Assembly: GCA_017454295.1 (NCBI GenBank)
Contig: JAFTDF010000042.1
Location: 484-64,483, forward strand
Origin: Bacilli bacterium
Lineage (GTDB): Bacteria > Bacillota_I > Bacilli_A > RFN20 > CAG-826
Direction: 5' to 3'
Length of the DNA stretch: 64,000 nucleotides
Below, in pieces: positions 35,543-61,204 of this stretch (the stretch's first letter is position 1; each line of letters begins with the position of its first letter). Made by a program: the position numbers and the translations under genes. The notes under the pieces are model-generated. The model was given only the letters and a program-made list of their open reading frames with translations. It did no database searches and was not told the origin of the DNA.

Positions 35543-35637
35543 AAGCCAGTTGCCTCATTTCCGGCAGCTGGCTGTCTAGAATCGTAGACCCTTTAGCTTT
35601 GCGTCGCCAGATCACTCTGGTTTTGCTTTTGTCGGCT
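35543..35637 (-). promoter_or_regulatory. c-di-GMP-I (GEMM-I)-like riboswitch, copy 2
   Basis: The minus strand reads GACAAAAGCAAAACC-AGA-GTGA-TCT-GGCGACGCAAAGC-TAAAGGGTCTA-CGATTC-TAGACAGCCAGCTGCC. A hairpin follows (CCAGCTGCC/GGCAACTGG) with CTTTTT directly before the ATG at 35539. Confidence 0.8.
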
Positions 35638-35732
35638 CTATTATATAGAGGCCGTTTCAAAAGGGAAACCTTTTTTCTCTCTTCCGTTTCGAAAAGGAAG
35701 CGTTCATCGAAAAAAACCATTGCTTTTTTGAA

Positions 35733-35763
35733 AGCAAAACCGCCCGTATGTGAAGGGCGGTTT
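35733..35763 (-). terminator. Rho-independent terminator ending the 14 kb fibre operon
   Basis: The minus strand reads AAACCGCCCTTCACATACGGGCGGTTTTGCT, immediately after the stop at 35767. Confidence 0.8.
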
Positions 35764-35766
35764 GAT

Positions 35767-38700
35767 TTATTTCCCGACGTTATTGTTGCTGCGGATCGCC
35801 TCGATGAGGGCGGGGCGTTCTAACGGCATGTAGAAGTAGTAACCTTGGAGTTCCAAATTGGGATTAATCTTGTAGAGAAGGTCGCTTTGGTCGCGGTTTT
35901 CAACACCGACGACGGCGATGTCGATATTCTTCTCCTTGGCCTCAGTTAGCAAGGACGTGATGGCTTTTAGACGGCTTTGGTCAGTATCGATATTGTGGAC
36001 GACATTACGGCCTACCTTGATCTTTTCGAAGCCCAGTTTTGCCACGTCATCGAGGGAAATGAAGCGGCCCGAATATTGATCGATAACCATGTGGACCTTG
36101 TGCTTCTTTAGCATCGGCGCGGCTGCTTCAAAGGCTTCCAAATGTTTGGAGACGTCGCCTTCTGCGATTTCGAAAGCAAGGAAGCCTTCGGGCAGTTTGC
36201 TCTTCTTGAGGAATTCGTCGAAGTCGGCGTCGAAGGATTGGTCGGCAAACAAAGAGACATCGGTATTCAAAGCCAGCTGCTTGAAGCCAAACATCTTTAA
36301 GGTCGCCGGACCAACGGCCTGGTAGAAGGAATCAACGTAACGGAGCAAAGCACGGGTAATGAGCGGGATCTTGCCGTTTTCCTCAGCCACGCGGATGAGT
36401 TCTTCCGGGTTGAAGACGATATGACGATATTCGTCTTGGATACGGAGCAAGATTTCGGCGCCGAAGATGCGATGCTCGCGACCTTGCACCATCGGTTGAA
36501 GCGAGACGCGGAAGGTCTCTTTCCCGAACTGCTCCTCGATGACTTGGAGGATGAATTCGCGACGGGATGCCGGACGGACGTAGTCGGTATCGTCGAAATA
36601 GATGTAGTCGCTGCCTTTATCGCGTTTACGGGTATTCAAATCGCGGGCCACGTGACGGAAGAAATCGTTGGCCCCGGCATAACCCTGCGGATAGTTCATC
36701 GGCATGTAGGAGATGTTCAAATCGTAGGTATCTCCGCCTTCATAGGTAAGGCCCTTGGTGAAACGGAAAATCTCTTCGCACCGGTTGATCAAATCGACTT
36801 GGCCAACCGCGGGGAACAAGATCCCGAGGGTCTTCTCGTCATAACGGAAGAAGCCATCGTATTGGGGACCGAGCTTCTTCAAGGCATCGATGAAGGCTCG
36901 CTGAATCAATAGGAACCCTTCCGAGCCGAAGCGGCGGATGAGCTGGTCGTGATTGTCTAAGCGCAGCATCAAGACATAGCCGTTATCGCCCACGAGGTAA
37001 TGGTTGCTGACTTCTTCGAATAAGGTTGGGAAGGAGGCAATGAGCAATTCGGGATCGTAACGGTTGGCGTAATCCTCTTCGGTACGGACGCGGCGTAAGA
37101 GCATCGTCTGACGCTGACCGCGTTGGACGTCGATCGTTAAAGAAGTCACGAATTGATGCTTCCCCACCTGCGAGGGTTTCTTGTTGCCCGTTTTTAACGG
37201 ACAATCGGCGCAGGGGCTGTTTAAACCATAAAGGCATTGGTAACAGGCCTTGCCTTCCTCCAAACCACGGAAGATGCGCTTCATACCCTTGGAGTAGGAA
37301 AGGATACGATACGTGCCTTTTTCGATTTGGTAGGACACCGAATCGGTCGCGGCGAGCAAGGCATCGTAACGGCGATGGGCTTCAAGCATATCCTCGATGA
37401 GCACGCCTTGGACGTAAGAGGAGGAAATGTGATAGCAAGCCGCGGACAGCGATTCTTGGAGATAACTGTCCAAGGAAGCGTTCTTGAAACGGTTGATGAA
37501 ATAGACGGCCCCATAGGTCTTGCCATCTTTCTTTAATGCGTAGAAGAAGCCGGATTGGATGTTTAATTTATCCAAGACCTTCCCCAGTTGCGGCCCCACA
37601 TGGTTCCGCGAGGAGAAATAGAAGGAATGATCGGGGTCATGGGAAGCGTCAAGCGCGGGGATGAAATCGGGGTCGACCAATTGGCCTACTTGGATCGTTT
37701 CCTCAGGACCCACATGGTCTTTGAAGATATAACCGCCGCGTTCTTGGTCATAGGCGATGATGCCCGCCATTTCGAAATTGAGCTCGCTGCAAAGGGCTTG
37801 TAACACGCGGGCCATGCCGGCACGGACATCTTGTTTGTTATCGTTGGTGGACTCAATCGAAGAGAGGTTGAACAGAATCTTCGACATTTGATTCAGGTGC
37901 ATCGCGTTTTTGCCGATATTGGCATCGCCGAGGTTATGGAGGCGGTTAGGCAAATACATCTGGGCGATCTTGCCTTGGCGGCGCGCATAACGAAGGTCGG
38001 GGAACATCTCGTGGACGGCGGAGAAGGGATAGGCGACGATGGCGTAATGGGGCACCAGTGGCACATAGCCTTCCACGTTGTGTTTGGAGATGGCCATCTT
38101 GCTGAGCAGACCATCGAAGCAATGCCGTAAGGCGGCGAAGGAATCGACGCGAGGCAAATAGATGTAGAACGAATTCCCGTCCTCCGGCAACAAGACGAGG
38201 AAATTCTCATAATGACGGAATTGCTCCACGATCATTTGGTGGATGGCGTGACGTTCGGCATCGCTTAGGCCATTGTTGCCCAAATCGTAATAGATATTGG
38301 CCAAAGCATTCCGGAAGTTCATCGAGGAGGCGATGATGTTGCTTAATTGCTTCTCAAAGCTCTCCAACGTCGCGACATGGTCAAAGCCTTCCACCCATTC
38401 GAGGAAGAAGGAATCGTAATTCAAATCGCCGAAAACCAAGGTGGCGTTATTCAAAGAGGATTTCACGGCATGGACGGCATCGTTTAACCGGGCGAATTCC
38501 ACCACTTTGTCGCCGCCGGGATAATCTTCGAGCCCGGCTTCGCCCGCGTTGATATGGGCGAGGTTGCGCTCCGTGACGCCAAACAAGGAATCGATATAAC
38601 GCTTCCGCAAGCCGCGGACGCTTAAAACCCCGATGATGAAGAAAGCGGCGATAAAGACGATGACGAAGATGATCATGGAAATCAAAACCGCCAAGTTCTG

Positions 38701-38826
38701 CGTCTTGCCATAGACCGTCCCCATCCCGACGATTAACGCCCCTAAGGCGATAAAGGCGGAAAGATAGGCGAGGATGGTGACGATGAACATCCGATGGAGG
38801 GTCTTTTTCTTTCGTGGTTTGGCCAT
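35767..38826 (-). CDS. Membrane protein with GAF-like, degenerate GGDEF-like and degenerate EAL domains (candidate c-di-GMP receptor)
   Basis: Two N-terminal TM segments. A GGDEF-like block has RYDEKT in place of RYGGDEF. The EAL domain keeps QP...EILLR, N and EIAE. However, it has DQYSGR for DDFGxG, KVG for KxD and VGVEN for EGVE. It also contains a CxxC-x8-CxxC motif (CYQCLYGLNSPCADC). Confidence 0.7.
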   Translation of the reverse strand: MAKPRKKKTLHRMFIVTILAYLSAFIALGALIVGMGTVYGKTQNLAVLISMIIFVIVFIAAFFIIGVLSVRGLRKRYIDSLFGVTERNLAHINAGEAGLEDYPGGDKVVEFARLNDAVHAVKSSLNNATLVFGDLNYDSFFLEWVEGFDHVATLESFEKQLSNIIASSMNFRNALANIYYDLGNNGLSDAERHAIHQMIVEQFRHYENFLVLLPEDGNSFYIYLPRVDSFAALRHCFDGLLSKMAISKHNVEGYVPLVPHYAIVAYPFSAVHEMFPDLRYARRQGKIAQMYLPNRLHNLGDANIGKNAMHLNQMSKILFNLSSIESTNDNKQDVRAGMARVLQALCSELNFEMAGIIAYDQERGGYIFKDHVGPEETIQVGQLVDPDFIPALDASHDPDHSFYFSSRNHVGPQLGKVLDKLNIQSGFFYALKKDGKTYGAVYFINRFKNASLDSYLQESLSAACYHISSSYVQGVLIEDMLEAHRRYDALLAATDSVSYQIEKGTYRILSYSKGMKRIFRGLEEGKACYQCLYGLNSPCADCPLKTGNKKPSQVGKHQFVTSLTIDVQRGQRQTMLLRRVRTEEDYANRYDPELLIASFPTLFEEVSNHYLVGDNGYVLMLRLDNHDQLIRRFGSEGFLLIQRAFIDALKKLGPQYDGFFRYDEKTLGILFPAVGQVDLINRCEEIFRFTKGLTYEGGDTYDLNISYMPMNYPQGYAGANDFFRHVARDLNTRKRDKGSDYIYFDDTDYVRPASRREFILQVIEEQFGKETFRVSLQPMVQGREHRIFGAEILLRIQDEYRHIVFNPEELIRVAEENGKIPLITRALLRYVDSFYQAVGPATLKMFGFKQLALNTDVSLFADQSFDADFDEFLKKSKLPEGFLAFEIAEGDVSKHLEAFEAAAPMLKKHKVHMVIDQYSGRFISLDDVAKLGFEKIKVGRNVVHNIDTDQSRLKAITSLLTEAKEKNIDIAVVGVENRDQSDLLYKINPNLELQGYYFYMPLERPALIEAIRSNNNVGK

Positions 38827-38828: not shown

Positions 38829-39566
38829 TTATTTCCCTCCTAGTAAGTCGGCGCGGCCGATGTCGCCGATGGTGGTGACGATGCCTTTGCCCAAATCGAT
38901 ATAATGCCGCAAGGTGGTGGCATAATCTTCCACCGTATAGGCCTTATCCAAGAAACGGGAGACCGTTTTCACGCCCACAAAGGGCACATGTCCCAAATAG
39001 CAGGCCGTGGCGATGCCACCCATATTGGTTTCCAAGACCACACGTTCCTTCGCCCCATAGAGGAATTCGCCCGAGGTCATTTCCTTGAGCTGTTCCATTT
39101 TGGTGAAGGCGACGTTGGTGGAAACGTAATTGCATACCGCATAATGGCCGATGCCCCGCTTCTCAAAGGAATCGGAGAGATAGCCCACGATATCCTCTTG
39201 GCAGAGGAAGTAAGGCGGGAAGCCCGGGATTTGGCCCATTCTCGTGCCGGCTTCGGCGGAAAGATCGACGTCGCCACTAAAGACACGGCCGGAAATGGCG
39301 ATATCCCCGGCTTTGAAGTCTTTGGAGAAAGCCGTGCAACGGCCCACCCCGATGACGAGGATCGCCAAATACTTCTGGATTAAACCCAGCATGATGGCGG
39401 AGGAAAGATAATTGGTGAACATCCCTTCGACGAGGCAGACTTCCTGATTGAAGATGTTCCCAAGGGTCAACTTGTAACGGTCTAAATAGGTTTCGGTGTG
39501 CTTCCCGGTCATGATGGAGTCGAAATAGAGGACGTCATCATGGGTGGCGCCGACGATCATAATCAT
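38829..39566 (-). CDS. Divergent MTA/SAH-nucleosidase-like (PNP_UDP_1 fold) protein
   Basis: By eye it aligns with MtnN (IVGATHDDV.., VLETNMGGIATAC.., VGVKTVSRFLD). The catalytic Asp of the SD motif appears replaced (VSR), and the GSAGG loop is GRCTA. Confidence 0.5.
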   Translation of the reverse strand: MIMIVGATHDDVLYFDSIMTGKHTETYLDRYKLTLGNIFNQEVCLVEGMFTNYLSSAIMLGLIQKYLAILVIGVGRCTAFSKDFKAGDIAISGRVFSGDVDLSAEAGTRMGQIPGFPPYFLCQEDIVGYLSDSFEKRGIGHYAVCNYVSTNVAFTKMEQLKEMTSGEFLYGAKERVVLETNMGGIATACYLGHVPFVGVKTVSRFLDKAYTVEDYATTLRHYIDLGKGIVTTIGDIGRADLLGGK

Positions 39567-41104
39567 CGCTTGGTTCCTCCTTCAAACGGGTTGTCTCTTA
39601 AGAAGGCCTCATATTCCTCTTTGGGGAGGGCCTTCGAATAATAGAAGCCTTGGATGGTGTCGCATTTGGCGCGGCGGAGGAATTCAACTTCCTCCTTGCT
39701 ATCGACGCCTTCGGCGATGACTTCACGGTCGGAAGCATGGCAAAGGCCGATGATCAATTTGACGATGTCTTTGGCACGGGGGTCCTCACGCATGGCATCG
39801 ATGAAGGATTTATCGACTTTCACCGCGTCGAAGGGGATTTTGCGGAGATTGATGATGTTGGAATAGCCGATGCCGAAGTCATCCATCAAGACACGCATCC
39901 CCCGTTCCCGGAGCTTCTTGATAATGGACACGGACAGGAACTGATTGGCTTGGGAGGTGGTTTCGGTGATTTCGATTTCGATGAGCGAAGGATCGATGCC
40001 ATAGGAATCGATGGTGTTCACGATCATCGAAAGGAAGTCCATGGAGTAGAACTCATAGAGGGAGAAGTTGACCGATACCGGCAATAAACGGCGCCCTTTA
40101 CGTTTGGCTTCGGCCAAATCCTCGCAGGTCTTTTTGAAGACGTAGATATCGAGCTCATGGAGCAATCCGGCGGCATCCATGCGCTCGATGAAACGCGCCG
40201 GTGGGACGATACCATATTTGGGCGAATGCCAACGGATCAAGGCTTCGGCGGAAATGAATTCTTTCTTCTCCAAGGAGAACTTAGGTTGGTAATAGACAAC
40301 GAATTCCTTGTCATCGAAGGCTTTGACGATTTCGGCGATATCGTCGCTGGAAGCGGCGGAGCGAAGTTTCTCGTCATAGTAAGAGAAGGTTTCGAAATTG
40401 CGCTCGGCATTCTCTTTGGCCAGCATCGCATCGTCGATCATCGGCATCAGCGATTCGGTGGGTCCGGCGTGGCGAATCCCAAAGAAAGGCTGGACATAGA
40501 TGTGATAATGGCGTTGATCCAAGATCGCATAGATGCGGTCGCGAATGGTGACGACGAGGTCTTCGACTTGGCCTTGGTCGCGGTCAAAGGCATAGACGAC
40601 GAAATTGCCACGGTCGAAGCAGAATAAGTGGCGACGGCGGTCATAGAGCCCGCTTTTGGCGGAGAATAAATCCGACAAGGCGAAAGCGATGCGGGAGTTT
40701 AAATCGTTGATTTCCTCGTTGGAGGTGGCGGCGCGGGAAGAAGAGAAGGAAGAAGCCGAGAAGACAATCAGGAATTGACTCTTCCCTGCGAAGCGGAAGC
40801 TCCGCCGCCAAAGATTGGCGTGCTGCTCAAAGGCATAAAGGTTATAGAACGCGGTCTTTTGCCCCAAGGAATAGAGGTTTTCCGTCTGTAACGAAGAAAC
40901 GACGGTACGTTGATTGAAATAGATGGTGATGCAGCGTAAGAAGAGCCCGGCAAAGAAGGTCAGGTAGAAAATCGCCCCGATCATCAAACCGTGGTTGCCA
41001 TCCATCACGCCGGTGGCAATCAAAATGATCGATACGACGATGGCCGCGACATAAAGACCACCGGTAATGATGGAGTAGAGGAAATAACGGCGTTTGGATT
41101 TCAT
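39563..41104 (-). CDS. Membrane-anchored degenerate-GGDEF / canonical EAL protein (c-di-GMP phosphodiesterase)
   Basis: YYQPKF...AEALIRW, VSVNFS, EIEITETT, LMDDFGIGYSNI, VKVDKSF, IAEGVDSKEE and IQGFYYSKALP are all present. The upstream GGDEF-like block reads FDRGNF. Confidence 0.85.
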   Translation of the reverse strand: MKSKRRYFLYSIITGGLYVAAIVVSIILIATGVMDGNHGLMIGAIFYLTFFAGLFLRCITIYFNQRTVVSSLQTENLYSLGQKTAFYNLYAFEQHANLWRRSFRFAGKSQFLIVFSASSFSSSRAATSNEEINDLNSRIAFALSDLFSAKSGLYDRRRHLFCFDRGNFVVYAFDRDQGQVEDLVVTIRDRIYAILDQRHYHIYVQPFFGIRHAGPTESLMPMIDDAMLAKENAERNFETFSYYDEKLRSAASSDDIAEIVKAFDDKEFVVYYQPKFSLEKKEFISAEALIRWHSPKYGIVPPARFIERMDAAGLLHELDIYVFKKTCEDLAEAKRKGRRLLPVSVNFSLYEFYSMDFLSMIVNTIDSYGIDPSLIEIEITETTSQANQFLSVSIIKKLRERGMRVLMDDFGIGYSNIINLRKIPFDAVKVDKSFIDAMREDPRAKDIVKLIIGLCHASDREVIAEGVDSKEEVEFLRRAKCDTIQGFYYSKALPKEEYEAFLRDNPFEGGTKR

Positions 41105-41925
41105 TGCTTCTCCTCCGGTTGTTCTTCGGGTTTCGGCGCGGCTTTCTTGCTGAGCATCTCTTGGAGCATCTCGTCTTTCAGGCGTTTTAATTCGGCCTCG
41201 GAAAGCCCTTCTAAAGAGACGTCTTTCTTTGGGGCTTCCGCCGTGACTTCTTCCGCGGGCTCTTTCATGGCTTTAAAGATATCCATGACGGAAACGATGA
41301 CCAAATAGAAGGCGGGGATCAAAAGCAAGACGAATAAGCCCCAAGGCGAGGCGACAAAGCCAAAGACGGCGCCTAAGAAATCGCTATGGAGCACCACTTT
41401 ACCCAAGATAAAGCGTTCCGTGAAGGCCTGATATTGGCCCGGGTGGGCCGCTTTGCCTTCGGGGTTAATCCCAGCCACGATAAAGGTATAACGCCCTTGG
41501 CCGGAAGCTTTGCTTTGGTCGATATGGATTTCCTGGACGCGGTGGGTCATCGGATAACCGGTGGGAATGGTCCGGTCATAAAGGCTCTTGTCTTCGGGGA
41601 CGGTATATTCGGTGGTATCGGTGCAGCGGTCCATGAAGGTGATGTCGATGGTTTCGCCCCGGAGAAAGGCCTGATAGAGCTTCTCCGGATCCTCGCGATA
41701 GGTGATGATGGCGGAGTTGACTTTGTATTCGGGTTCCATGGAGTTGGTCCGAACCACGAAATTGCCCACACCGAAGCGAATCGGCTGACTGAAATATTCG
41801 TCCTTATGGACCATGGATTCGATCTGCCCTGCCCCCACGGCGAGGAAAAGGACGCCGACGATGCCGACGAGGACCCATTCGATAATGCGACGGGCTTTAG
41901 ATTTCTCTTTCTTCACCCGTTTCAT
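41101..41925 (-). CDS. sipW: Archaeal/ER-type signal peptidase I (SipW-like, S26B) with a C-terminal TM and charged tail
   Basis: N-terminal TM, catalytic-Ser box VRTNSMEPEY, His box GYPMTHRVQEI, a second TM near aa 190-220, then a K/E/P-rich tail. Confidence 0.8.
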   Translation of the reverse strand: MKRVKKEKSKARRIIEWVLVGIVGVLFLAVGAGQIESMVHKDEYFSQPIRFGVGNFVVRTNSMEPEYKVNSAIITYREDPEKLYQAFLRGETIDITFMDRCTDTTEYTVPEDKSLYDRTIPTGYPMTHRVQEIHIDQSKASGQGRYTFIVAGINPEGKAAHPGQYQAFTERFILGKVVLHSDFLGAVFGFVASPWGLFVLLLIPAFYLVIVSVMDIFKAMKEPAEEVTAEAPKKDVSLEGLSEAELKRLKDEMLQEMLSKKAAPKPEEQPEEKQ

Positions 41926-44045
41926 AATTTGACGACCTTCCCGCCGAGTTTGGCTTTGATGTCATGGGCTAAGTTGTAGTCATCGAAGACCTTGGCATCG
42001 TCTTTGTCTTCGCTATAGGTGCCTTCTTCGACGTAATAGCCCATTAAGGTTTTCACGATAAAGGTGCCGGGGATGGGTTCCCGTTCCATTTTCGGTTTAC
42101 GTTGTTTCACCGGCACGAATTCTTCTTCGTCCTCATCATCGTATTTGGGAGATTCGTAGTTCTCAGCCTCCGCATCCGTTTGATGGTCAAAGACCGGCAC
42201 GAAAGCGGGCGAAGCTTCTTCCTTCTCCTCCACGGCGGCTTCTTCGATAGGTTCCTCGGGAAGAGCTTCTTCGATCAAAGGCTCGGAGATTTCCGGTTCG
42301 GGGGTCTCGGGTTCAGCCAAGACTGCAGGAGTTTCGTCGATCTCGGGCTCTTTCGATTTCCGTTTCCTACCTTTTTTCGCGGCAGGTTTGGAGGCTTTTG
42401 GCTTTTCTACGGGTGCGATGGGCACTTCTTCTTGGGCGACGGGTCCTTGCTCCTGAGGAACCACTTCTTCAGAGGCCCTTGCTTCAGGAGCCGAATCTTT
42501 GGGAGCCGAATCTTTGGGAGCGACTTCTTCCGGAACGAAAGCTTCGGATTCAGAAACCTCGGGGGCTTCTTCTGCCGTTTCTACAGAGGCGGGAATATAT
42601 TCCTCGGGTTCAGGCTGCTGTTCTTCGAGAATCGGTTCTTCTTGTTTTTGCTTTTTGCCCTTTTTCGAAACGGGTTGTTCTTCGTCCCAAGACTGGTTCC
42701 AAGTGGCTTTGGCCGCGGCGACGAGTTCGGCACGGACGCGGTTGAGCAAATCGGTTTCCTCTTGTTGGATGACCTTGGCTTCTTTGGCGGCAAGACGTTT
42801 CCGTTCGAATTCGCGTTTTTCCAAAATGGCTTCGGCTTGCTTTTCGAATTGCCGTTCCATCTTGGCGTTGCGGTGACGGAGTTGCTCGAGTTCTTTCTCG
42901 AATTCACGCAGATCACGCTTCTCTTCGTATTCTTCCGCGTAATATTCCTTCTCTTTCCGCGTGGGGTGTAAGGGCAAATCCTTGTTGAGGAGGCGATTGA
43001 GGTATTCCATATACCCTTCGTCGGCGCGGACGAAATGGATGGGGCCTTTCAAATAAGGCCCATAGATAAAGGCCTCGTCCTCGGCATGGGTGAGGATCTT
43101 GGGTTTATATTCCTTGACGGCTCCTTTGGTCACCGTCGATTTATCCTTGCCTTGCAAAGCAAGATAAGAACCAAGCAGCGAGAAATTGAGCTCCGCGAGT
43201 TCTTTATCCGTGAAAACGGAATAATCCTCGTTCATTCGGTAAGTGATACCCAACGTGGAATAGGTCTCCAAATAGCGATAGACCTCATAGCAATGATGGT
43301 ATTTGGGGTTCTTACGGATGATGTTGGTTTGGAGAATGGGGTTGCGGACGTTGTTCTCGGTTTTGAATTTCCGCATAAACGGCGAGTTGTAGTAATACAA
43401 AATGTAATTACGGATCTCGGCGATACGTTGGAAATAGGTGGAGTTGAGTTGGCTCACCTCGGTGTGGGAAACGGATTTGACTTTGACTTTGGTTTCGATG
43501 GAAATCTCGGAATCCCCGATTTGGGAATGGTTTTTCAAATAGAGGACTTCCTCATCGTGGAGTTTGGCGAACTTCAACGCGAATTCATAACGTTTCTCGA
43601 CGAAGAGCATCAATTTACGAATGAAGGTCGCGATAAAACGGTTCTCGTAGGTGAAGAGGTTATCCTCGTTGGAGAAATTTAAGATCTTCGAAGGGATGAC
43701 GTTGCCGTATTCATCGACTTCTTTGATGTATTGGGTATGGGAGGCCAGATGTTGAACGGATTCCCCCGTGATTTTTTTCGCCAATTCGATCGGGGTGATG
43801 TCGGAGACCGCATGCGTGACCGAACGGGGCGCTTTGATGATATCGCCTAAATCGAAGATGACGCCTTCGATTTTATCGATCCAACGGGCATCGAAGGAGG
43901 AAGTCTCAACACGGTCGAGGCGCAAATACGAGTTTTTGCCGCGAGAAAGCCCCGCGTAGAGTTCCGCTTCATCCTCATCTTTGATGATGGAGCGCATCTT
44001 CGCGGTATATTTGGCGTAGAGTTTTTTATCGCGGCTTTCTTCCAT
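41922..44045 (-). CDS. McrC/DUF2357-like partner protein with a coiled coil and a long acidic P/E-rich region; no recognisable nuclease motif
   Basis: The segment NLFTYENRFIATFIRKLMLFVEKRY resembles the (T/P)-x-ENR-f-hk-x-fL motif of McrC/DUF2357 N-domains. No signal peptide or TM. aa 360-640 are coiled coil plus low complexity. A small C-terminal globular domain follows. Overlaps both neighbouring genes. Confidence 0.45.
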   Translation of the reverse strand: MEESRDKKLYAKYTAKMRSIIKDEDEAELYAGLSRGKNSYLRLDRVETSSFDARWIDKIEGVIFDLGDIIKAPRSVTHAVSDITPIELAKKITGESVQHLASHTQYIKEVDEYGNVIPSKILNFSNEDNLFTYENRFIATFIRKLMLFVEKRYEFALKFAKLHDEEVLYLKNHSQIGDSEISIETKVKVKSVSHTEVSQLNSTYFQRIAEIRNYILYYYNSPFMRKFKTENNVRNPILQTNIIRKNPKYHHCYEVYRYLETYSTLGITYRMNEDYSVFTDKELAELNFSLLGSYLALQGKDKSTVTKGAVKEYKPKILTHAEDEAFIYGPYLKGPIHFVRADEGYMEYLNRLLNKDLPLHPTRKEKEYYAEEYEEKRDLREFEKELEQLRHRNAKMERQFEKQAEAILEKREFERKRLAAKEAKVIQQEETDLLNRVRAELVAAAKATWNQSWDEEQPVSKKGKKQKQEEPILEEQQPEPEEYIPASVETAEEAPEVSESEAFVPEEVAPKDSAPKDSAPEARASEEVVPQEQGPVAQEEVPIAPVEKPKASKPAAKKGRKRKSKEPEIDETPAVLAEPETPEPEISEPLIEEALPEEPIEEAAVEEKEEASPAFVPVFDHQTDAEAENYESPKYDDEDEEEFVPVKQRKPKMEREPIPGTFIVKTLMGYYVEEGTYSEDKDDAKVFDDYNLAHDIKAKLGGKVVKL
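42487..42516. repeat. Perfect 15-bp tandem duplication inside the 707-aa gene
   Basis: GGAGCCGAATCTTTG occurs twice, followed by the partial copy GGAGC. It encodes APKDS-APKDS in frame. Confidence 0.9.
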
Positions 44046-45562
44046 TAGTTGTTCTTAATCAAGTTTTCGATATAGGCGTGGGACATGGGGAAGGTGCCTT
44101 TGCCATAGAGTTTATCCAAATAAGCATCGAGTTGCTTCAACTCGTCTTTTAAGAAGGCGATGTTGAGGGATTCGAACTTCTTCAAGATCTTGCTGGCAAA
44201 GATGAAATCGAAGCCATCGACTTCCTTGCCGCCACAGGCGACGAAGGTCGGGATGAAGGATTCGAGCTGCTTCAAGATACGGTTACCGAAGGCGAGTTTG
44301 AATTTCTTGATGACGAAGTTATCGAGGTCTTCGAATTTCTGGGTCATATTCTCGGAAATCGGGAAGTTGCGGATGGCATCGTCATAGAGACTGCGGAGTT
44401 GGAAATAGGGAATCGGCATCGGCTCTTGCTGGGCGGCCTGGAACGGGCGGCCCTTATCGTCGAAGAAGAGGGAGATGGCACGGTCATAGACCTTATCGGA
44501 GATGGTGAAGGTGGAGTCGTCGTTGTTGGCGGTGCCGAAGAAGACGACGTTTTGGGGAATGGCGAGTTTGCCTTCTTTGAGGTTGGCGGGGTCGCTTGGT
44601 AAGGTGTTGGGGATCAAGTCGATCTGCCAGGCGGATGGATCGCGCATTTCCATGATGGATAGGAATTCGGCGAAATAGTATTCGATACGGGCCAAGTTCA
44701 TTTCATCGAGGGTGATGATGTCGAGGTCTTGGCGGTAGCCGCAGGTATAGAGGGCTTTCAAGAATTCGGATTCGTTGAATTTCTTGGTGAATTCGTTGTA
44801 GTAACCTAACAATTCGGAACGGTCTTTCCAAGAGGGCTGGACCGGGATGATGGCGGAGTCGAATCCGAAGAACTTACCAAGGGCATAGGCAAGCGAGGTT
44901 TTACCGGTACCGGAGATCCCTTCGAGGATGATTAATTTCGAAGTGGCCATACCGGCGAACAATTGACGGATGGTTTCGATCTTGTAATACAAGCCCAATT
45001 GGCTGGCGGCATAGTTGCGGAAGGAGTTGCAGAGTTCTTCTAGGGACAAGCCCTGATGCATGGGGATATCCATGTTGACGCCGCGATAAGCGTTATCGAC
45101 GGAAATCAGCTTGGGGAAGCGGGTACCACTGGTATCGGCGGCCTCTTCAGCAGCCGCGGCTTCTTCGCCCGGCTTTAAGCCCATATAGCCGACTTTGAGG
45201 TTGAGGATCTTGTCGCGTTCACGGGTTGCTTCATAGAGTTCGTAGTTGAGGCGTTCGACCTGGCGGCGAAGTTCGTCTTTGTCGAGCTCGCGGCGGACGA
45301 AACGGATATATTTCCGAAGCAGGATGAAGAGCAAGAATCCCAGTCCGCCGATGAGGGCGATGAAGAGAATCAAGAACAACACCCAGAAGAACCAGCCCCA
45401 AAAGCCGAAGTCTTTGGAAGCGACGGAAAGGTAAGAGCCATAGTCATTGAAGTTCTGGGGCACATCGGACCAAGGGGAGGCGAAAGCCTTCTGGAACCAT
45501 CTCCCGATATCGGAGAAGACCCGGATGAGCAATTGACGTAGATATTCGAAGTAAGCGGTCAT
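44045..45562 (-). CDS. Membrane-anchored McrB-like AAA+ (AAA_5) NTPase
   Basis: One TM (FWGWFFWVLFLILFIALIGGLGFLLFILL), then a coiled coil. Walker A is GISGTGKTS and Walker B plus the McrB-type helix is IITLDEMNLARIEYYFAEFLSIME. The NxxD-type motif is FFGTANNDDSTF..DKVYDRA. There is no N-terminal DNA-binding domain. Confidence 0.75.
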   Translation of the reverse strand: MTAYFEYLRQLLIRVFSDIGRWFQKAFASPWSDVPQNFNDYGSYLSVASKDFGFWGWFFWVLFLILFIALIGGLGFLLFILLRKYIRFVRRELDKDELRRQVERLNYELYEATRERDKILNLKVGYMGLKPGEEAAAAEEAADTSGTRFPKLISVDNAYRGVNMDIPMHQGLSLEELCNSFRNYAASQLGLYYKIETIRQLFAGMATSKLIILEGISGTGKTSLAYALGKFFGFDSAIIPVQPSWKDRSELLGYYNEFTKKFNESEFLKALYTCGYRQDLDIITLDEMNLARIEYYFAEFLSIMEMRDPSAWQIDLIPNTLPSDPANLKEGKLAIPQNVVFFGTANNDDSTFTISDKVYDRAISLFFDDKGRPFQAAQQEPMPIPYFQLRSLYDDAIRNFPISENMTQKFEDLDNFVIKKFKLAFGNRILKQLESFIPTFVACGGKEVDGFDFIFASKILKKFESLNIAFLKDELKQLDAYLDKLYGKGTFPMSHAYIENLIKNN

Positions 45563-46614
45563 ATTTCCATCTCCCTTAAGATCTTGAATTGCAGATTGGC
45601 TTGGAAGGAGCCACCCATATTGGCATTGACGCAGTCGTGGTCCCAGCCCTCTAAGTAGATGCTGATTTGCAGCGGCTTCGGTTGGTTCCGGTGGCAGGCG
45701 ACGTAGAAGGGGTTCACCTGGATGTCGTTGCTGCCTAGTTCGTCGAAGGTATAGGCGGTTTCTTGTTTGATCACGAGTCCCTTCTTAGTGGAAGCCTCTA
45801 AGTCAAAGGGGTGCGTCCCATAGGAATGCCCGGCATTGAAGGAGGTGAGTTCGCCATCGGCTTCGGTGGCCACCTCGAGGCGTTCCCCATGGACGATGGC
45901 GTCGTAATCGTTATATTCGCCATAGAGGATTTCCTTTTGGAATCCCGTTCCGCCTTCCATGTAGATGTCATAGAAGCCATCGCGGTCGTTATCGAGGACC
46001 CCGCCATAATAGGTGATGCCCTCGCGATGGGGATCGATGATGACATAATTGTCATCCTCAAAGTCATAAATGGAAACCCGAATCGCCTTCTCCAAGGTGT
46101 TAAGCCGTTCGACCCGTTCCTCATAGGTGTAGGTCGATAGCATGTTCCTCGCGGTGATCATGTTCGCTTCCACGTAGGCGCGCACGAAACAAAAAGCGGG
46201 ATCGATGCCAACGTAAACGTTGTCGTCGGCGCAAAGCCATAACGTCTGCGAGTAATGGCCATAGCTGACGGCATCGGGTCCGAAGGGGATACCCTTGTCG
46301 GAAGTGATCAAATTGGCGTATTCGTAAAACTTCGGCGCGGTCTTGCCATCCCTCCAGCGGGATTCGAACATGGTCGAGACCGGGGCGAAGCGCACCACTT
46401 GATCGAGTTCTTCGGCGGCGAGTTTGTCCTTCATCTTCGCCACGTCCTCGGTGGTGCCGATTTTCAAGCCTTTTTCGCCCGCCATCTCGATTTCGAGGGT
46501 GCGGACGGCCAGATTGGTCGCGTTGTTATACCAGGCCAAAGACGAGGCAAAGGATGCCCCGGATAAGGCCGTAAGGCCGATAAGGGAAGCAAGTAGCAAA
46601 CGCGATCGTTTCAT
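45559..46614 (-). CDS. Secreted TasA-like fibre-family paralogue (about 351 aa)
   Basis: The signal ...LSGASFASSLAWYNN carries the motif. C-terminal motif LQISIYLEGWDHDCVNANMGGSFQANLQFKI. ATG at 46614 is preferred over the GTG at 46626. Confidence 0.65.
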   Translation of the reverse strand: MKRSRLLLASLIGLTALSGASFASSLAWYNNATNLAVRTLEIEMAGEKGLKIGTTEDVAKMKDKLAAEELDQVVRFAPVSTMFESRWRDGKTAPKFYEYANLITSDKGIPFGPDAVSYGHYSQTLWLCADDNVYVGIDPAFCFVRAYVEANMITARNMLSTYTYEERVERLNTLEKAIRVSIYDFEDDNYVIIDPHREGITYYGGVLDNDRDGFYDIYMEGGTGFQKEILYGEYNDYDAIVHGERLEVATEADGELTSFNAGHSYGTHPFDLEASTKKGLVIKQETAYTFDELGSNDIQVNPFYVACHRNQPKPLQISIYLEGWDHDCVNANMGGSFQANLQFKILREMEI

Positions 46615-46615
46615 A

Positions 46616-47782
46616 CTAGAGGGCACGGTTGATCTGGAATTGGAGCCCTAGATTGAATTGGTGGCTGATCTCGTCATCGATGACGGCATGGTCCCAACCT
46701 TCGAGATAAACGGACATCGTCAGGTGGGCCAAAGCGGCATCGTCGTTAGCGGTCACGCATAAAGGCGTACCACCGGTGAGGTAGCCGGCCCCGTTATCGG
46801 TCGGGGCAATGGATTTGAGCGTCTCGTAATGGGCCAGTTCAGGCGTGACAAACGAGGCAAAATCGGACGTGGTATAACCATCGACGCCTTCTTTGTGTTT
46901 GCCATAGAAGGTGGAGGCGTTGGTGCGTCCGGGGTTGACGTAATAATCATTGACGTCATCTAGTCCGGTATCGGCGCCGAAATGCGTCAAATGATTGGCG
47001 GGGTTATTATCGGGGTGAGCCGCCGTCTTGGCATAACGGCCATAGACGATCTCTTCGGAGGCATCGTAGTCATAGAACCCGTCGTTATTCAAATCGAGCA
47101 GGCCCGCGACCTTGGTGTCGCCGGCGAGGGCTTCTTTCCCGACCCCGGGATTGAGGATTAATTTGGTGGCCCCATCGAAATGGAGGCGTAAGGCCCGATA
47201 GATTTGGTGGGAGGCATCCCCGCCGGTGGTGGCGAGGGCGTCGGTGATCCAGATGTTCTCGTTCTTGGCGTAGATGTTGCCCGTGGCACCGGTATGGATG
47301 ACGCGGAAGACGAAGTCGATTTTGCAATAGGCCGTCTTGCCGGCATCGTAGATTTCGGTGCTATAAGCCATCGGGGCTTTCTTTAACGCGAGGTTATCCC
47401 CATTGGCATAGCCATAGGAAGACACCGGCGTTAATTCATTGGTCGCATACCCTTGCCGCGCTAAATAGGCTTGGATGGCGACCGAGTTGAGGCCGGAACC
47501 GGCCTTCGCCCAATAGATATCTTCTCCATTGATCTCTTCGTGGGTCAGCCCGAGGTTGACGACATGGTGTTGGGCGTCGATCACGTCTTGGGTGAAGTCC
47601 ACATCGGAAACGAGTCCGATCTGAAGCTGTTCCGACTGCGCGACAGAGGTGCCTTGATAAGACATCGTGACACGGGTGGACGAGGCATACCACGCGACCG
47701 TACCGGAGATGGCTCCGGCGAAAGAGGCAGTCAACGCTAAAACCATCGCAGCTGAGAAGATATGAGCTTTTCTTAGTTTCAT
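46616..47782 (-). CDS. Secreted TasA-like fibre-family paralogue (388 aa)
   Basis: Signal ...SFAGAISGTVAWYASS. C-terminal motif LTMSVYLEGWDHAVIDDEISHQFNLGLQFQI. Confidence 0.65.
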   Translation of the reverse strand: MKLRKAHIFSAAMVLALTASFAGAISGTVAWYASSTRVTMSYQGTSVAQSEQLQIGLVSDVDFTQDVIDAQHHVVNLGLTHEEINGEDIYWAKAGSGLNSVAIQAYLARQGYATNELTPVSSYGYANGDNLALKKAPMAYSTEIYDAGKTAYCKIDFVFRVIHTGATGNIYAKNENIWITDALATTGGDASHQIYRALRLHFDGATKLILNPGVGKEALAGDTKVAGLLDLNNDGFYDYDASEEIVYGRYAKTAAHPDNNPANHLTHFGADTGLDDVNDYYVNPGRTNASTFYGKHKEGVDGYTTSDFASFVTPELAHYETLKSIAPTDNGAGYLTGGTPLCVTANDDAALAHLTMSVYLEGWDHAVIDDEISHQFNLGLQFQINRAL

Positions 47783-47829
47783 AGGATGACCCCCTTTCTT
47801 CTAATTAAATTTCGTCGCCATCAGGGTGC

Positions 47830-47863
47830 GGGCAAAGTCGCATGAGTCGGTACGGCTTTGCCC
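47830..47863 (-). promoter_or_regulatory. Stable intercistronic hairpin after the putative major subunit gene
   Basis: GGGCAAAG-N18-CTTTGCCC (8 bp GC-rich stem) in the 137 nt gap. No U tract. Confidence 0.5.
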
Positions 47864-47919
47864 GATCCAATGGTTAGAAATAAACGTGTTTTGTGGTTGT
47901 TTTGGAGATAAACGAGAGA

Positions 47920-48978
47920 TTATTCAGCGTCGGTATGGGCTTCAGCGGTGAAGCGGATACCAACGTTGAACTTGGCACCAACGGTCTTGGTTTCGTCCCA
48001 AATGGACTTAACATCAACGGTGTCGGAACCAGAAGTCGCAGTTTTGGTGCTGAGTTCGGTCCAGCCTTCAAGATAAATCTTGAGGTTCACATAGAGGTTC
48101 TTGGTGGCGGAAGTGGAACCGATTTCCTTGCCCACGATAGCGGTCGCGGTGGAATCGTCGGCGACACCGACGACGTTGCTGGTGACTTTGGTGTTGGCAG
48201 TCGCAACAGCGGTCTTCTCGTTGACGCCATAGAGCACATCGGCACGGCCAGTGCTAAAGTCATAACCTTCAGTTTGATCGATGATACCGTCGTTGTTGAG
48301 GTCGAGCTTGCCATACACCTTGACGGGGTCGGCGCTCTTGGCAAAAGTGGCGTAGTCGGCAAAGACGGGATTGCCGGAATCGGGGGCCGTAACGGCGGAA
48401 ACGCCAACTCGAAGAGCGGAGGAGACATCAATTTTGCCAGAGGGGTTGTCGGTGGCGGCCTGAAGCGTCACGTCAGAGACGTAGATCTTCTTCGCAAGAT
48501 AAGAATCGGTGTCCGCACCAGTCACGTCTTTTACACGAATTTCAAGAGGAATCACAATGTAATCGACTTCGGCGCTAGCTTCTCCCCAAGAAGTCATCTC
48601 GGCGTATTGATAAATCGGGTTCTTGTAGAGCGTAGCGGCAACTGCACCAGCGGCAAGTTCGCCGGAGGTAACCGGGCGAAGTTCGTTGGTAGCAGCGGTA
48701 CGGTTGGCGCCGCCATTAGCGGTGGTCGCGGCCAAATAAGTGGCAATGTCGGTAGAGGTTAAATCCTGCTTCCATTCGCCAAAGCCATCGGTTTTGGTGG
48801 AGCGGATACGGATTTGGATGCTTTCAGAGCAGTGAGCAGAGGCACCAGAATAGGCGACGGTGCTACGGGTGGAGTATTGATACCAAGCAACGGTACCGGA
48901 GATGGAACCAGCGATGGCGGCACCCATGGCGATGGCCATAGAAGCGATCGTGGCTTTCTTTAAGGTGTTAGTTTTCAT
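47920..48978 (-). CDS. Secreted TasA-like fibre-family paralogue, putative major subunit (352 aa)
   Basis: Signal ...GAAIAGSISGTVAWYQYS. C-terminal motif LYVNLKIYLEGWTEL...GAKFNVGIRFTAE. Codon usage (GGT/ACC/GCT/CGT rich) looks biased towards high expression. Followed by a hairpin. Confidence 0.65.
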   Translation of the reverse strand: MKTNTLKKATIASMAIAMGAAIAGSISGTVAWYQYSTRSTVAYSGASAHCSESIQIRIRSTKTDGFGEWKQDLTSTDIATYLAATTANGGANRTAATNELRPVTSGELAAGAVAATLYKNPIYQYAEMTSWGEASAEVDYIVIPLEIRVKDVTGADTDSYLAKKIYVSDVTLQAATDNPSGKIDVSSALRVGVSAVTAPDSGNPVFADYATFAKSADPVKVYGKLDLNNDGIIDQTEGYDFSTGRADVLYGVNEKTAVATANTKVTSNVVGVADDSTATAIVGKEIGSTSATKNLYVNLKIYLEGWTELSTKTATSGSDTVDVKSIWDETKTVGAKFNVGIRFTAEAHTDAE

Positions 48979-49789
48979 AAGCGTTTATTTCAACTCCTAA
49001 TTTGATTGTGGCTCCAACAGGAGGAGTCATGTCGTCTCTGGATTGACGGTCTTCACCTTCAAGCCAGGCGACGAGGGTGTACCTGCGGATGTCGTCTGCG
49101 CGGAACCCGGGCACAGTGTAACGGGCTACGGTCTCGCCGGAGAGGAAGAGCTCCGCTAAAGGGTGGTCCTCGTCTTCGGTCCGATCATAAGAAGCCTCGG
49201 CAATGAACTCGCGACGGGTTCTGGTCCCGTCGGGGAGGTAATTGTATTCGGCGGCTTCTTTGGCGTAGACCTTGTAATTGTGCTCGGTACTGTTGGCCTC
49301 GTTATCGAAGATCATGACCCTGAGGGTGTCATCGAGCTTCCGCTCGGTGCCATCATCGGTGGGTTTGCTCTCCGTGATGTTAAACGAGATGTCGTACTTC
49401 GCGGTCTTCTTACCGACGTTTTTCACGTAGAACGTATATTTGAAATAATTCAAAGTCGTCCAGGCGTTCTTATCGTCGTAATTGGCCCCGAGGGTATAAG
49501 GGGAATCCTCGTTATCCAAAACCTCTCCAGAGGGAAGGGCATGGAACGTGGTCTCCTCATACGGTCGTAAATCGTCGATACGAAGGAGCGACTCTGGTTT
49601 TTCAAACGAAGCCTTTTCGCTTAGCGACAACCCCACTTCACCGTTATTGACGGAGACCGTGAATGTCCCAACGAATCGGCCAAGGAAAGCAATGATGCTT
49701 AAAGACACCAGCCCCGACGTGGAGGCACCCACGACGATCCAGGCGGCGATCTTCCTTTTCCGTTTTCTCACTAAGTCAAGTTCGTACAT
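48968..49789 (-). CDS. Membrane-anchored TasA-like family member with a degenerate signal motif (273 aa)
   Basis: The TM is followed by GRFVGTFTVSV, compared with GGTFAWF in its paralogues. It shares the C-terminal motif YTLVAWLEGEDRQ...ATIKLGVEINAYE. First gene after riboswitch copy 3. Confidence 0.6.
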   Translation of the reverse strand: MYELDLVRKRKRKIAAWIVVGASTSGLVSLSIIAFLGRFVGTFTVSVNNGEVGLSLSEKASFEKPESLLRIDDLRPYEETTFHALPSGEVLDNEDSPYTLGANYDDKNAWTTLNYFKYTFYVKNVGKKTAKYDISFNITESKPTDDGTERKLDDTLRVMIFDNEANSTEHNYKVYAKEAAEYNYLPDGTRTRREFIAEASYDRTEDEDHPLAELFLSGETVARYTVPGFRADDIRRYTLVAWLEGEDRQSRDDMTPPVGATIKLGVEINAYEN

Positions 49790-49829
49790 AAACGATCGTG
49801 CTTCGGTACAGAAAGCACTATGTGTCCCA

Positions 49830-49966
49830 ATGGGAGAAATAAATACCAGTTGCCTATCATCCAGTGTGATCTGGTGGGTATTTCTCCCTAAGGCAACTGG
49901 CTATCTAGTGAACTAGACCCTGTAGTTTTGCGTCACCGCATCGCTGCGGTTTTGCTTTTGACTCGC
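49830..49966 (-). promoter_or_regulatory. c-di-GMP-I (GEMM-I)-like riboswitch, copy 3, with a terminator-type expression platform
   Basis: The minus strand reads GTCAAAAGCAAAACC-GCA-GCGA-TGC-GGTGACGCAAAAC-TACAGGGTCTAG-TTCA-CTAGATAGCCAGTTGCC. CCAGTTGCCT then re-pairs with AGGCAACTGG (49855-49846), followed by TATTTATTTCT. Confidence 0.8.
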
Positions 49967-49970
49967 CCGT

Positions 49971-49999
49971 AATATAGCGAATTGAAAAATATTTTGCAA
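49971..49999 (-). promoter_or_regulatory. Sigma-70/SigA-type promoter of the 14 kb fibre operon
   Basis: The minus strand reads TTGCAA-N17-TATATT, 5-10 nt upstream of the aptamer. Confidence 0.65.
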
Positions 50000-50027
50000 C
50001 ACTGAAACTCCCCCCATAGTTTCTATG

Positions 50028-50058
50028 CAAAAATGAAAACACCCCACTAGGGGGTGCT
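50028..50058 (-). terminator. Rho-independent terminator after the 127-aa membrane protein gene
   Basis: The minus strand reads CACCCCCTAGTGGGGTG followed by TTTTCATTTTT. Confidence 0.8.
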
Positions 50059-50076
50059 TCCAATTGGTTTGTTCTT

Positions 50077-50460
50077 CTACTTGTTATCGGAGTTCAGATC
50101 CTCGAGAAGTTGCTTCCGGAGGGCTTCCTTCTGCTCATCCGAGAGATCGTTGACTTTGATCGGCTCTTTCTTCGTGGATTTCCGCACATAGATGACTAAG
50201 CCGATGATATTGCCGGCCAGCAACACAAATAGCGGAATGACATAGGAGACGAGATAGACCGTGGGGTTATTTTGGAGATAACCGATATAGCCTTCGGCGG
50301 TAATGATCTCGGCCGCGGTTTTACCAACGGTGTTGGCCAACATAATAATGTTGAATACGGCCAGCCCCAAAGTCGCGATGATATCGATGACAAGAAGGGT
50401 AATGAGCAATGGTTTTTTAGCTTTGTTCATACGGGAAACTACCGATTTTTCGGCTTTCAT
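50077..50460 (-). CDS. Small membrane protein (about 3 TM) with a charged C-terminal tail
   Basis: Hydrophobic segments. Co-directional, 50 nt downstream of the 320-aa fibre-family gene. Confidence 0.55.
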   Translation of the reverse strand: MKAEKSVVSRMNKAKKPLLITLLVIDIIATLGLAVFNIIMLANTVGKTAAEIITAEGYIGYLQNNPTVYLVSYVIPLFVLLAGNIIGLVIYVRKSTKKEPIKVNDLSDEQKEALRKQLLEDLNSDNK

Positions 50461-58763: not shown

Positions 58764-59705
58764 TTAAGAAATCGTGAATGAGAAAAAATAATCGTAGATC
58801 GCCCGAATCCGATGGTCGCTGGTCACGGCTTCGCGGAATTGTTTCAGCTCTTCCGGGGCATAATTGACGTTGATATAAGCCACCGCTTCATAGGGTTCTT
58901 CTTCCGCGGGCTCAACGAAATCGATCCCCACTTGATCCCCAATCACGGCGACACGGGAGACATCGTCTTCATAGAAGTTCACGTGGCTAGCTTCTAAGGA
59001 CGATAAATACGAAATCTTATAATAAACTTTCTCCAGCTCAGTCAGCTCCCGAGTCAAATAAGAGGGGATGTATTTGGTATAGGTTTCGGTATCCTCGTCA
59101 TAAAGCGGGTTTTCCGTTTCTCCCGTTTCCGCCAAATCTTCCGGAGTGTAAATATCGAAGTCGACGCAGGTAGAAAGCAAGGTTTCGTCTTCTTCGGGCG
59201 ATCGATCGGGCAGTTTCACAGCAGCGGCCCTTAAGTCCGCTAGCGACGTAAACTCGTTGGAGGAGAACGTCACTTCGAAAATCGCATTGGAATTGAAATC
59301 GATTAACGGGGTCCCTTGGATGAATGTTTCCAATGGATCATAGAGATTCATCACATCCACCTTCACCCATTCGTCGTCAACGGTTTCCCCAAAGGAAGGC
59401 GGCTCGCCTTCAAAATCGTAATAGAAGCCCTTGACGTAATAATGGTTATCCCCGGATTTATTGGGGCGGGTATAGTCGATGCCGCCGATACCATCATCGG
59501 GGAACACGAATTTAATCAAGCGAACGCTTTTAATGCTGGCATTGCGGTTCATGACTTGGAACTGCGATGCCTGGGCAGCGGCGTCGGTTTGGGACATAAA
59601 CCAAGCGAAAGTTCCACCGAAAGCAGAGAGTAACGATAAAACCAGCGTCGTCGTGGCTGCGACGATGGTCCGGATTCCTTTTCTTGACCCTTTGTTCTCT
59701 TTCAT
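58764..59705 (-). CDS. Secreted protein (313 aa) with a SipW/TasA-type signal motif; partner of the giant adhesin
   Basis: N-terminus ...LVLSLLSAFGGTFAWFMSQ. First gene after riboswitch copy 1. The C-terminus resembles that of 34682-35539. Confidence 0.65.
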   Translation of the reverse strand: MKENKGSRKGIRTIVAATTTLVLSLLSAFGGTFAWFMSQTDAAAQASQFQVMNRNASIKSVRLIKFVFPDDGIGGIDYTRPNKSGDNHYYVKGFYYDFEGEPPSFGETVDDEWVKVDVMNLYDPLETFIQGTPLIDFNSNAIFEVTFSSNEFTSLADLRAAAVKLPDRSPEEDETLLSTCVDFDIYTPEDLAETGETENPLYDEDTETYTKYIPSYLTRELTELEKVYYKISYLSSLEASHVNFYEDDVSRVAVIGDQVGIDFVEPAEEEPYEAVAYINVNYAPEELKQFREAVTSDHRIRAIYDYFFSFTIS

Positions 59706-59707
59706 GA

Positions 59708-59826
59708 AAAACCAGTCTGCAATGAATCAACTTAGGTTTCCCCAAGCTTTCTTTGGCAGCTGGCTGTCTTATTCAAGACCCTTTAGCATTGCGTCGCCAG
59801 ATTACTCTGGTTTTGCTTTTGACGAT
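59708..59826 (-). promoter_or_regulatory. c-di-GMP-I (GEMM-I)-like riboswitch, copy 1
   Basis: The minus strand reads GTCAAAAGCAAAACC-AGA-GTAA-TCT-GGCGACGCAATGC-TAAAGGGTCT-TGAATA-AGACAGCCAGCTGCC. A hairpin follows (CCAG-CTGC / GCAG-A-CTGG) with TTTTT abutting the ATG at 59705. Confidence 0.8.
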
Positions 59827-59830
59827 TCCT

Positions 59831-61074: not shown

Positions 61075-61204
61075 GGGGTATGGCTCCGATAGAAATGGGT
61101 TTCGAATAATCCATTGTAATCTCCCGAGGCGTTTTTGTGAAACGAAACTCGCCCGCCGGGTTTCGGGTTCAACGCTTCGATTTGCTTTGTCGCTTAACGC
61201 GTTC

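Follow-up and report, generated by a model that had tools for sequence, protein, structure and literature searches.

We analysed a 64,000-nucleotide (nt) stretch of DNA from a Bacilli bacterium (contig JAFTDF010000042.1), called the window below, in which a GEMM-I riboswitch, the third of three copies, precedes an operon of ten genes. We suggest, with a probability of roughly 0.75, that the leader of this operon acts as a transcriptional ON switch in which an aptamer and a terminator would compete kinetically for the same RNA strand, the ligand most likely being cyclic di-GMP (c-di-GMP). A first-pass annotation had outlined such a switch. The riboswitch class and its basic mechanism are already known; the expression platform is unusually elaborate and well conserved, and its three-way-junction terminator, a second helix that crosses this terminator, a GGGACA motif and an A at position 20 of the aptamer are new relative to that annotation. 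All features of the leader and the operon lie on the minus strand of the window, and L-numbers (L001 etc.) denote related loci or leaders from other genomes.

Layout and transcription of the leader

The leader begins downstream of a gene whose terminator, as read from the sequence, sets the riboswitch transcription unit apart from that gene, and it ends at the start codon of gene 1. Its features, in the order of transcription, are:

50034..50062 (-): intrinsic terminator of the upstream gene (127 residues), a stem of 12 base pairs (bp) followed by TTTTTGCATA
49971..49999 (-): sigma-70-type promoter, TTGCAA (49999..49994), a 17-nt spacer and TATATT (49976..49971)
49889..49966 (-): GEMM-I (c-di-GMP-I) aptamer, RF01051
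49891..49901 (-): strand a (GCCAGUUGCCU), part of the aptamer and 5' strand of the terminator
49879..49888 (-): strand b (GGGAGAAAUA), 1 nt past the 3' strand of P1, after A49889
49861..49888 (-): interior of the three-way junction in the minimum-energy fold
49855..49860 (-): junction motif AUGAUA, within GGAUGAUAGGCA, nearly invariant in 39 aligned leaders
49845..49855 (-): strand a' (AGGCAACUGGU), 3' strand of the terminator, assigned from fold and covariation
49835..49844 (-): U-rich tail of the terminator (AUUUAUUUCU), directly after the stem
49832..49841 (-): strand b'' (UAUUUCUCCC), a perfect complement of b that overlaps the distal U tract
49823..49828 (-): GGGACA motif (element e), conserved, after the second helix
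49798..49818 (-): hairpin 3 (7 bp), just ahead of the start codon

The promoter, which the first-pass annotation had placed directly upstream of the aptamer, is present there and is the sole sigma-70-like site within 49500..50300; transcription is predicted to start near 49964. In 46 of 55 related leaders a -35/-10 pair likewise ends 2-6 nt ahead of column 1 of the aptamer model, and this fixed distance implies that transcription begins at the P1 strand.

RNA from this region was found among the assembled contigs of eight rumen metatranscriptome runs from five studies. The contigs run unbroken from inside gene 1 across the terminator into the aptamer (for example 49745-49946, 49712-49942, 49744-49934, 49670-49920 and 49660-49920), and read-through RNA thus exists in vivo. 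The farthest of them reaches 49946, inside P2, which contradicts a transcription start downstream of the aptamer, a case that the annotation had considered. No contig in any of the eight runs covers 49947-50069, a segment that includes the promoter, although the upstream gene is covered; the 5' end of the transcript falls between 49947 and the promoter. The contigs of several runs stop near 49909, and a reading of these ends as transcript 5' ends was dropped because other runs reach 49946.

A GEMM-I aptamer with a very short P1

The aptamer is genuine, as annotated. It matches Rfam model RF01051 over its full length (1-87) at 58.5 bits and an E-value of 7e-9 (gathering score 35), and is one of three RF01051 copies in the window (49966..49889, 35637..35560 and 59827..59752). 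At 49888-49965 (-) the variant model RF03167 (c-di-GMP-I-GGC) reaches 55.4 bits, below its gathering score of 59. The three window copies were aligned and the Rfam structure was placed on the alignment, which gave a P1 of 3 bp (49964..49962 with 49892..49890), a P2 capped by the GNRA-type tetraloop GCGA, a P3 and a J2/3 of AAA that holds the equivalent of A47; C49893 is the equivalent of C92, and position 20 is A (49956). In these respects, including the short P1, the element resembles Vc2 of Vibrio cholerae, the GEMM-I prototype. It differs in carrying A rather than G at position 20, and in that P1 has just 3 bp and sits at the first transcribed nucleotides.

Among 57 related aptamers, 94.6% of the cells at paired positions can pair and 12 pairs show double changes, including all six pairs of P2 and five of P3; the 3-bp P1 covaries as well. 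The covariation score was matched by none of 500 shuffles, and controls in which the partner strand was slid gave 21-38% paired cells. By sequence and covariation the element belongs to the c-di-GMP-I/GEMM-I class (RF01051).

A terminator that takes its 5' strand from the aptamer

The first-pass annotation had proposed that the last conserved segment of the aptamer (AGCCAGTTGCCT, 49902..49891) is also the 5' strand of a 10-bp terminator stem. This was confirmed, and the partner (AGGCAACTGG, 49855..49846) and the following U-rich stretch (TATTTATTTCT, 49845..49835) that it named are present; in the fold the stem is longer by one pair (11 bp, 49901..49891 with 49855..49845, 6 of them G-C), with an a' segment that can also be written GGCAACUGG. 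Minimum-energy folding of the leader yields the terminator fold (-46.2 kcal/mol, z = -3.6), which retains P2 and the tip of P3. As expected of an intrinsic terminator, the stem is G+C-rich and a U-rich tract follows it immediately. The 35 nt enclosed by the stem fold as two hairpins and so produce a three-way junction. Both hairpin 1 (GGG, 49888..49886, with CCC, 49878..49876) and hairpin 2 (CCAG, 49874..49871, with CUGG, 49864..49861) recur in most relatives.

Nearly every nucleotide of strand a has a place in the aptamer core. C49900, C49899 and A49898 to U49895 make up the 3' strand of P3, G49894 corresponds to G73, C49893 is the C92 equivalent, and C49892 and U49891 belong to P1; only G49901, part of a 2-nt bulge in P3, lies outside the ligand-binding core. 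In Vc2, the pairing partner of C92 is one of the two guanines of c-di-GMP (PMC6140456). Because the 5' strand of the terminator consists of aptamer core nucleotides, formation of one fold rules out the other, which bears out the mutual exclusion that the annotation had anticipated. A ligand-bound aptamer precludes the terminator, and the logic of the switch is therefore ON. For an RNA ending at 49836 the terminator fold is computed at -43.0 kcal/mol and the aptamer fold at -27.2 kcal/mol, and some 45 nt are transcribed between the point at which the aptamer is complete and that at which a' is; these nearest-neighbour energies fit a kinetic switch.

Conservation of the platform in relatives

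We compared 52 genomic loci of gene-1 homologues from rumen Bacilli genomes, using a covariance model that we derived from the aptamers of the three window copies. In 51 of them the model placed an aptamer 90-240 nt ahead of the gene-1 homologue, and the remaining locus has just 157 nt of upstream DNA, too little for the search. Of the 48 leaders parsed, 45 combine an a:a' stem of 9-10 bp with a U-rich tail, defined as at least 5 U among the 9 nt past the stem. The variants CCAGcUGCC and CCAGgUGCC of strand a are matched by changes in a' (L005, L037, L001, L016, L034 and L048); in the formal count 95.4% of the a:a' cells are paired, and the variable pair occurs as UA 32 times, CG 3 times and GC once. 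The arrangement goes beyond chance, since it recurs with covariation in about 50 other genomes.

Several relatives vary the platform. Two divergent leaders (L027:5870-5960 and L030:610-700) replace UUGCC at the 3' end of the aptamer by UUCCC or UUUCC and form a single long helix, in which the aptamer tail and b pair with b'' and GGGA; GGACAAUAGGC and GGGACA are kept. Their sequences suggest an output other than termination. Twelve leaders (L003, L006, L007, L009, L010, L011, L014, L019, L020, L022, L029 and L041) differ in the region about 60-90 nt past the aptamer and have an extra terminator: the aptamer ends in CCAGCAACCUCA and has its own simple 12-bp terminator (AACCUCAAUC…GAUUGAGGUU-UUAUAUUU), after which an orphan second copy of AGAUAGCCAGUUGCC and the full three-way-junction platform are found. 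These leaders therefore have two terminators in series behind one aptamer, and the orphan strand may substitute for the first one in P3. In L040 (5700-5930) two complete GEMM-I aptamers stand in tandem ahead of the platform, of which the covariance-model search listed the first only. Further GEMM-I aptamers occur within 6 kb of the gene-1 leader at L002:413-488 (-), L040:899-972 and L034:77-156, and clusters of riboswitch-controlled surface-protein operons appear to be conserved in this clade.

A second helix in read-through RNA

Strand b can pair either locally, in hairpin 1, or with b'', in a 10-bp helix (49888..49879 with 49841..49832). As the strands follow one another in the order a, b, a', b'', the b:b'' helix crosses the terminator, and only read-through RNA can form it. 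The mean duplex energy is -13.35 kcal/mol for cognate b and b'', compared with -6.91 kcal/mol for non-cognate strands from other loci, and the cognate b'' ranks in the top three for 37 of 46 leaders, which none of 5000 permutations matched. An unedited MAFFT alignment contains changes on both sides at all ten pairs, with a covariation score that none of 500 shuffles reached. Judged by this pattern of substitution, the helix is under selection. When the aptamer is enforced in folding, b:b'' forms spontaneously, and the resulting ON fold has an energy of -48.6 kcal/mol, compared with -57.5 kcal/mol when the terminator folds. Covariation thus supports both helices as well as the aptamer and the strand overlap.

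The motif GGGA(C/U)A follows the second helix in 48 of 48 parsed leaders (as GGGACA in 46) and is absent in L044 and L045. The modelled probability that GGGACA is unpaired in the window is 0.88 in the ON fold and 0.33 in the OFF fold, and its exposure is modelled to be greater in the ON fold in 35 of 45 leaders. The helix b:b'' may lock or protect the mRNA of the ON state, and GGGACA may be an output site. Neither the aptamer nor hairpin 3 nor the start region contains a conserved complement of the motif, and no known RNA family was found in the expression platform in Rfam at E ≤ 5. GGAUGA and GGGACA bear a possible resemblance to CsrA sites.

Close to the start codon, the 3' strand of hairpin 3 carries the only purines that resemble a Shine-Dalgarno (SD) sequence (GAAG), and a comparable hairpin occurs in 23 of 44 unique leaders. 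The first genes after all three riboswitches of the window lack a well-placed SD sequence (49787-49820, 35537-35565 and 59703-59730, all (-)), the downstream genes of the three operons have strong ones (AGGAG, GGAGG), and the U tract of the terminator runs right up to the AUG in copies 1 and 2. Three other candidate functions were rejected. Translational coupling was set aside on the equal modelled accessibility of the SD zone and the AUG in the ON and OFF folds. A leader peptide was set aside, whether begun at the conserved AUG of GGAUGAUAGG or at the UUG of AUUGGGACA, because its frame relative to GGGACA varies among loci and it has no SD sequence. A hammerhead-like core (GAUGA in the three-way junction) was set aside on the strand order of the junction, which is unfit.

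Proposed mechanism, ligand and alternatives

In the mechanism that we propose, the sigma-70 promoter would start transcription at about 49964, right at the 5' strand of P1. If a cyclic dinucleotide binds while the next 45 nt or so are transcribed, the aptamer would keep strand a (49901..49891), a' (49855..49845) would remain unpaired, no terminator would form, and the polymerase would enter the ten-gene operon. Without ligand, a' would displace the base of P3, the ligand-contact C and P1; the 11-bp a:a' stem would close the three-way junction, and the U-rich tract would then end the transcript. In read-through RNA, b'' (49841..49832) would pair with b (49888..49879), an arrangement incompatible with the terminator fold that would narrow the energy gap between the folds and expose GGGACA. 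We infer that termination is the regulated step.

Among the closest known systems is the pilM riboswitch of Geobacter metallireducens, an ON switch for 3',3'-cyclic GMP-AMP (3',3'-cGAMP) with mutually exclusive aptamer and terminator folds, in which the terminator captures the C92 equivalent (PMC9262584). The leader studied here shares with it an aptamer of the A20 type, the ON logic by exclusive folds and a terminator that takes the ligand-contact C. It differs in its three-way-junction terminator with two hairpins, its covarying post-terminator helix, GGGACA, its host (Bacillota), the presence of EAL and GGDEF genes within and next to the operon, and its ligand, which is probably c-di-GMP.

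The identity of the ligand is where the earlier claim that c-di-GMP turns the operon on has to be qualified. The ON logic stands, with the strand overlap and its compensatory changes found in 45 of 48 leaders, whereas the ligand is only likely, since position 20 is A. All three window copies have this A, as do 47 of 57 related aptamers (G in 9, U in 1), and by the criterion used for GEMM-Ib RNAs it would mark a 3',3'-cGAMP riboswitch. Together with A47 and C92, A20 characterises the GEMM-Ib RNAs that sense cGAMP or are bispecific, the G20A mutant of Vc2 binds both c-di-GMP and cGAMP, some natural A20 RNAs are bispecific, and G20 RNAs discriminate against cGAMP (PMC6140456). The same ON architecture could accordingly serve cGAMP, or the RNA could be bispecific, and the EAL protein of the operon would then close no feedback loop. 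The only gene in the window that encodes a GGDEF protein with the GGDEF motif kept (60001-61269 (-)) is a neighbour of the operon and has an unusual LHNHSF where cyclases usually have NRR, which bears on the dinucleotide that is made and counts on the side of cGAMP. We nevertheless favour c-di-GMP as the probable ligand, because orthologues alternate between A and G at position 20, the operon encodes EAL and GGDEF-EAL proteins, and a GGDEF gene is conserved as a neighbour, standing upstream in L053, L054 and L056. The interchange of A and G, with nine orthologues carrying G20, argues against strict selectivity for cGAMP, c-di-GMP being the ligand common to both forms, and no cGAMP synthase was seen within the 64-kb window. 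A cGAMP-responsive or bispecific switch is, in our estimate, unlikely.

Besides A20, several observations weigh against a simple termination switch. The U tract of the window is interrupted (AUUUAUUUCU), and a consensus terminator scan (loops of 3-8 nt) did not call the riboswitch terminator, whose stem encloses 35 nt; this terminator and the hairpin at the end of the operon, both missed through the loop limits of the scan, were read by eye and by folding. L027 and L030 have neither a' nor a U tract, and L037 has a poor U tract behind its a:a' stem, so that termination is not the sole possible output. Gene 1 has no clear SD sequence, and translation may be regulated too, beyond the termination model. 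The assembled contigs, moreover, can neither reveal a short product of termination nor give relative amounts or the exact 5' end. The imperfect U tract and the three exceptional leaders would suit a bistable switch in which a:a' and b:b'' act mainly after transcription, on mRNA stability, processing or the access of a factor to GGGACA, and in which termination is secondary or weak in this bacterium. Such a switch would give a role to b:b'' and GGGACA, which are conserved and selected yet of no use for the termination decision. It would also suit the long helix and GGGACA kept by L027 and L030 and the orphan strand a that 12 relatives have after a separate simple terminator. However, a U-rich run stands right after a' in 45 of 48 leaders, which selection on the helix alone would not need; the predicted accessibility of the SD zone and the AUG is the same in both folds, and no partner or factor for GGGACA was identified. 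We consider a mainly post-transcriptional switch rather improbable. An OFF switch, in which the ligand would promote termination, has precedent in the same aptamer class: Cd1 of Clostridioides difficile, upstream of flgB, is an OFF switch whose aptamer and terminator coexist while a separate antiterminator competes (PMC9262584). Cd1 shares with the present leader a transcriptional mode of action and a Firmicute host, but an OFF switch needs this coexistence, and here the 5' strand of the terminator is the 3' strand of P3, the C92 equivalent and P1, so that the folds exclude each other and the sign is the opposite one. An OFF reading is very improbable.

Within the ON switch that we favour, both helices might be used in sequence. 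Tentatively, and with some doubt, we picture one aptamer with two outputs obtained by chained alternative pairings, in which a:a' would decide on termination and b:b'' would then lock the read-through RNA, mask the U tract, hold the mRNA 5' end in a stack of P1 and b:b'', and expose GGGACA as a binding or processing site for mRNA stability or translation. The 12 leaders with an orphan strand would then be relays, one aptamer gating two terminators in turn.

Were c-di-GMP the ligand, negative feedback would result from the EAL enzyme encoded in the same transcript, as the first-pass annotation had suggested. The suggestion gains strength from an EAL gene (about 515 residues) that is the eighth gene of the operon in three distant relatives as well (L054, L055 and L056, with gene 1 50-61% identical), and the loop still stands as a conditional one. 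In this way the uncharacterised CoCoPALM secretion and assembly operons of uncultured rumen Bacilli would gain a regulatory input, a cyclic dinucleotide that turns them on, and possibly a conserved built-in brake in the form of the phosphodiesterase. The finding refines existing knowledge and does not overturn it. About 50 natural variants of one platform, in which both alternative helices covary, form a data set on the wiring of ON riboswitches beyond the aptamer, and with b:b'' and GGGACA the usual two-state model gains elements that can be tested.

The operon and its proteins

Downstream of the leader, the 14-kb operon of ten genes is as annotated, with ten co-directional open reading frames from 49789 to 35767 (14,023 nt). 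Neighbouring frames overlap or are at most 2 nt apart, except at one gap of 137 nt, in which no promoter or terminator was predicted. The genes are:

48968..49789 (-): gene 1, 273 residues, N-terminal membrane helix and beta-sandwich (AlphaFold model, mean confidence (pLDDT) 81.5)
45559..48978 (-): genes 2-4, 352, 388 and 355 residues, paralogous secreted proteins with TasA/SipW-type signal-like N-termini (…GTVAWY…)
41922..45562 (-): genes 5 and 6, an AAA_5/McrB-like protein of 505 residues (AAA_5 match) and its partner of 707 residues, the CoCoPALM pair
41101..41925 (-): gene 7, 274 residues, SipW-like signal peptidase by a weak match (NF046067, E 2e-6, under the cut-off of that family)
39563..41104 (-): gene 8, 513 residues, membrane protein with an EAL phosphodiesterase domain (E 5e-63)
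38829..39566 (-): gene 9, 245 residues, PNP_UDP_1/MTA-SAH-nucleosidase-like
35767..38826 (-): gene 10, 1019 residues, a degenerate GGDEF domain (sub-threshold match) and a degenerate EAL domain

The EAL phosphodiesterase and the degenerate GGDEF-EAL protein of the annotation are thus genes 8 and 10. Gene 8 retains the EAL, DDFG, KVDK and QG motifs. In gene 10 the EAL domain is degenerate (EIL, and DQY in place of DDF), and from these replacements its product is likely a receptor rather than an enzyme.

The description of the operon as a fibre operon was not confirmed and remains a label only. Gene 1 belongs to a family of more than 500 homologues, all from uncultured rumen or gut Bacilli; its sequence has no match in the PDB, and its model has no significant match there either, TasA and pilins included (best E 2.5e-3, TM score below 0.25), so that a TasA-like fibre fold is not supported. 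No Pfam or NCBIfam match was found for genes 2-4. The operon does match the description of CoCoPALM systems, McrBC-like proteins encoded with signal-peptidase and pilus-assembly genes, which were left unexplored (PMC11090510): a McrB-like AAA_5 protein, a large partner and a signal-peptidase-like gene stand here beside secreted paralogues. The regulation of the systems that it names is not described in that paper, and neither a riboswitch nor c-di-GMP appears in it.

Beyond the last gene, a 10-bp hairpin with a 9-nt loop (CAAACCGCCC…GGGCGGUUUUG, 35725-35753 (-)) lies 13 nt past the stop codon and probably ends the 14-kb unit. Elsewhere in the window, at 1949-2022 (-), there is a fluoride riboswitch (RF01734, 37.5 bits, gathering score 34).

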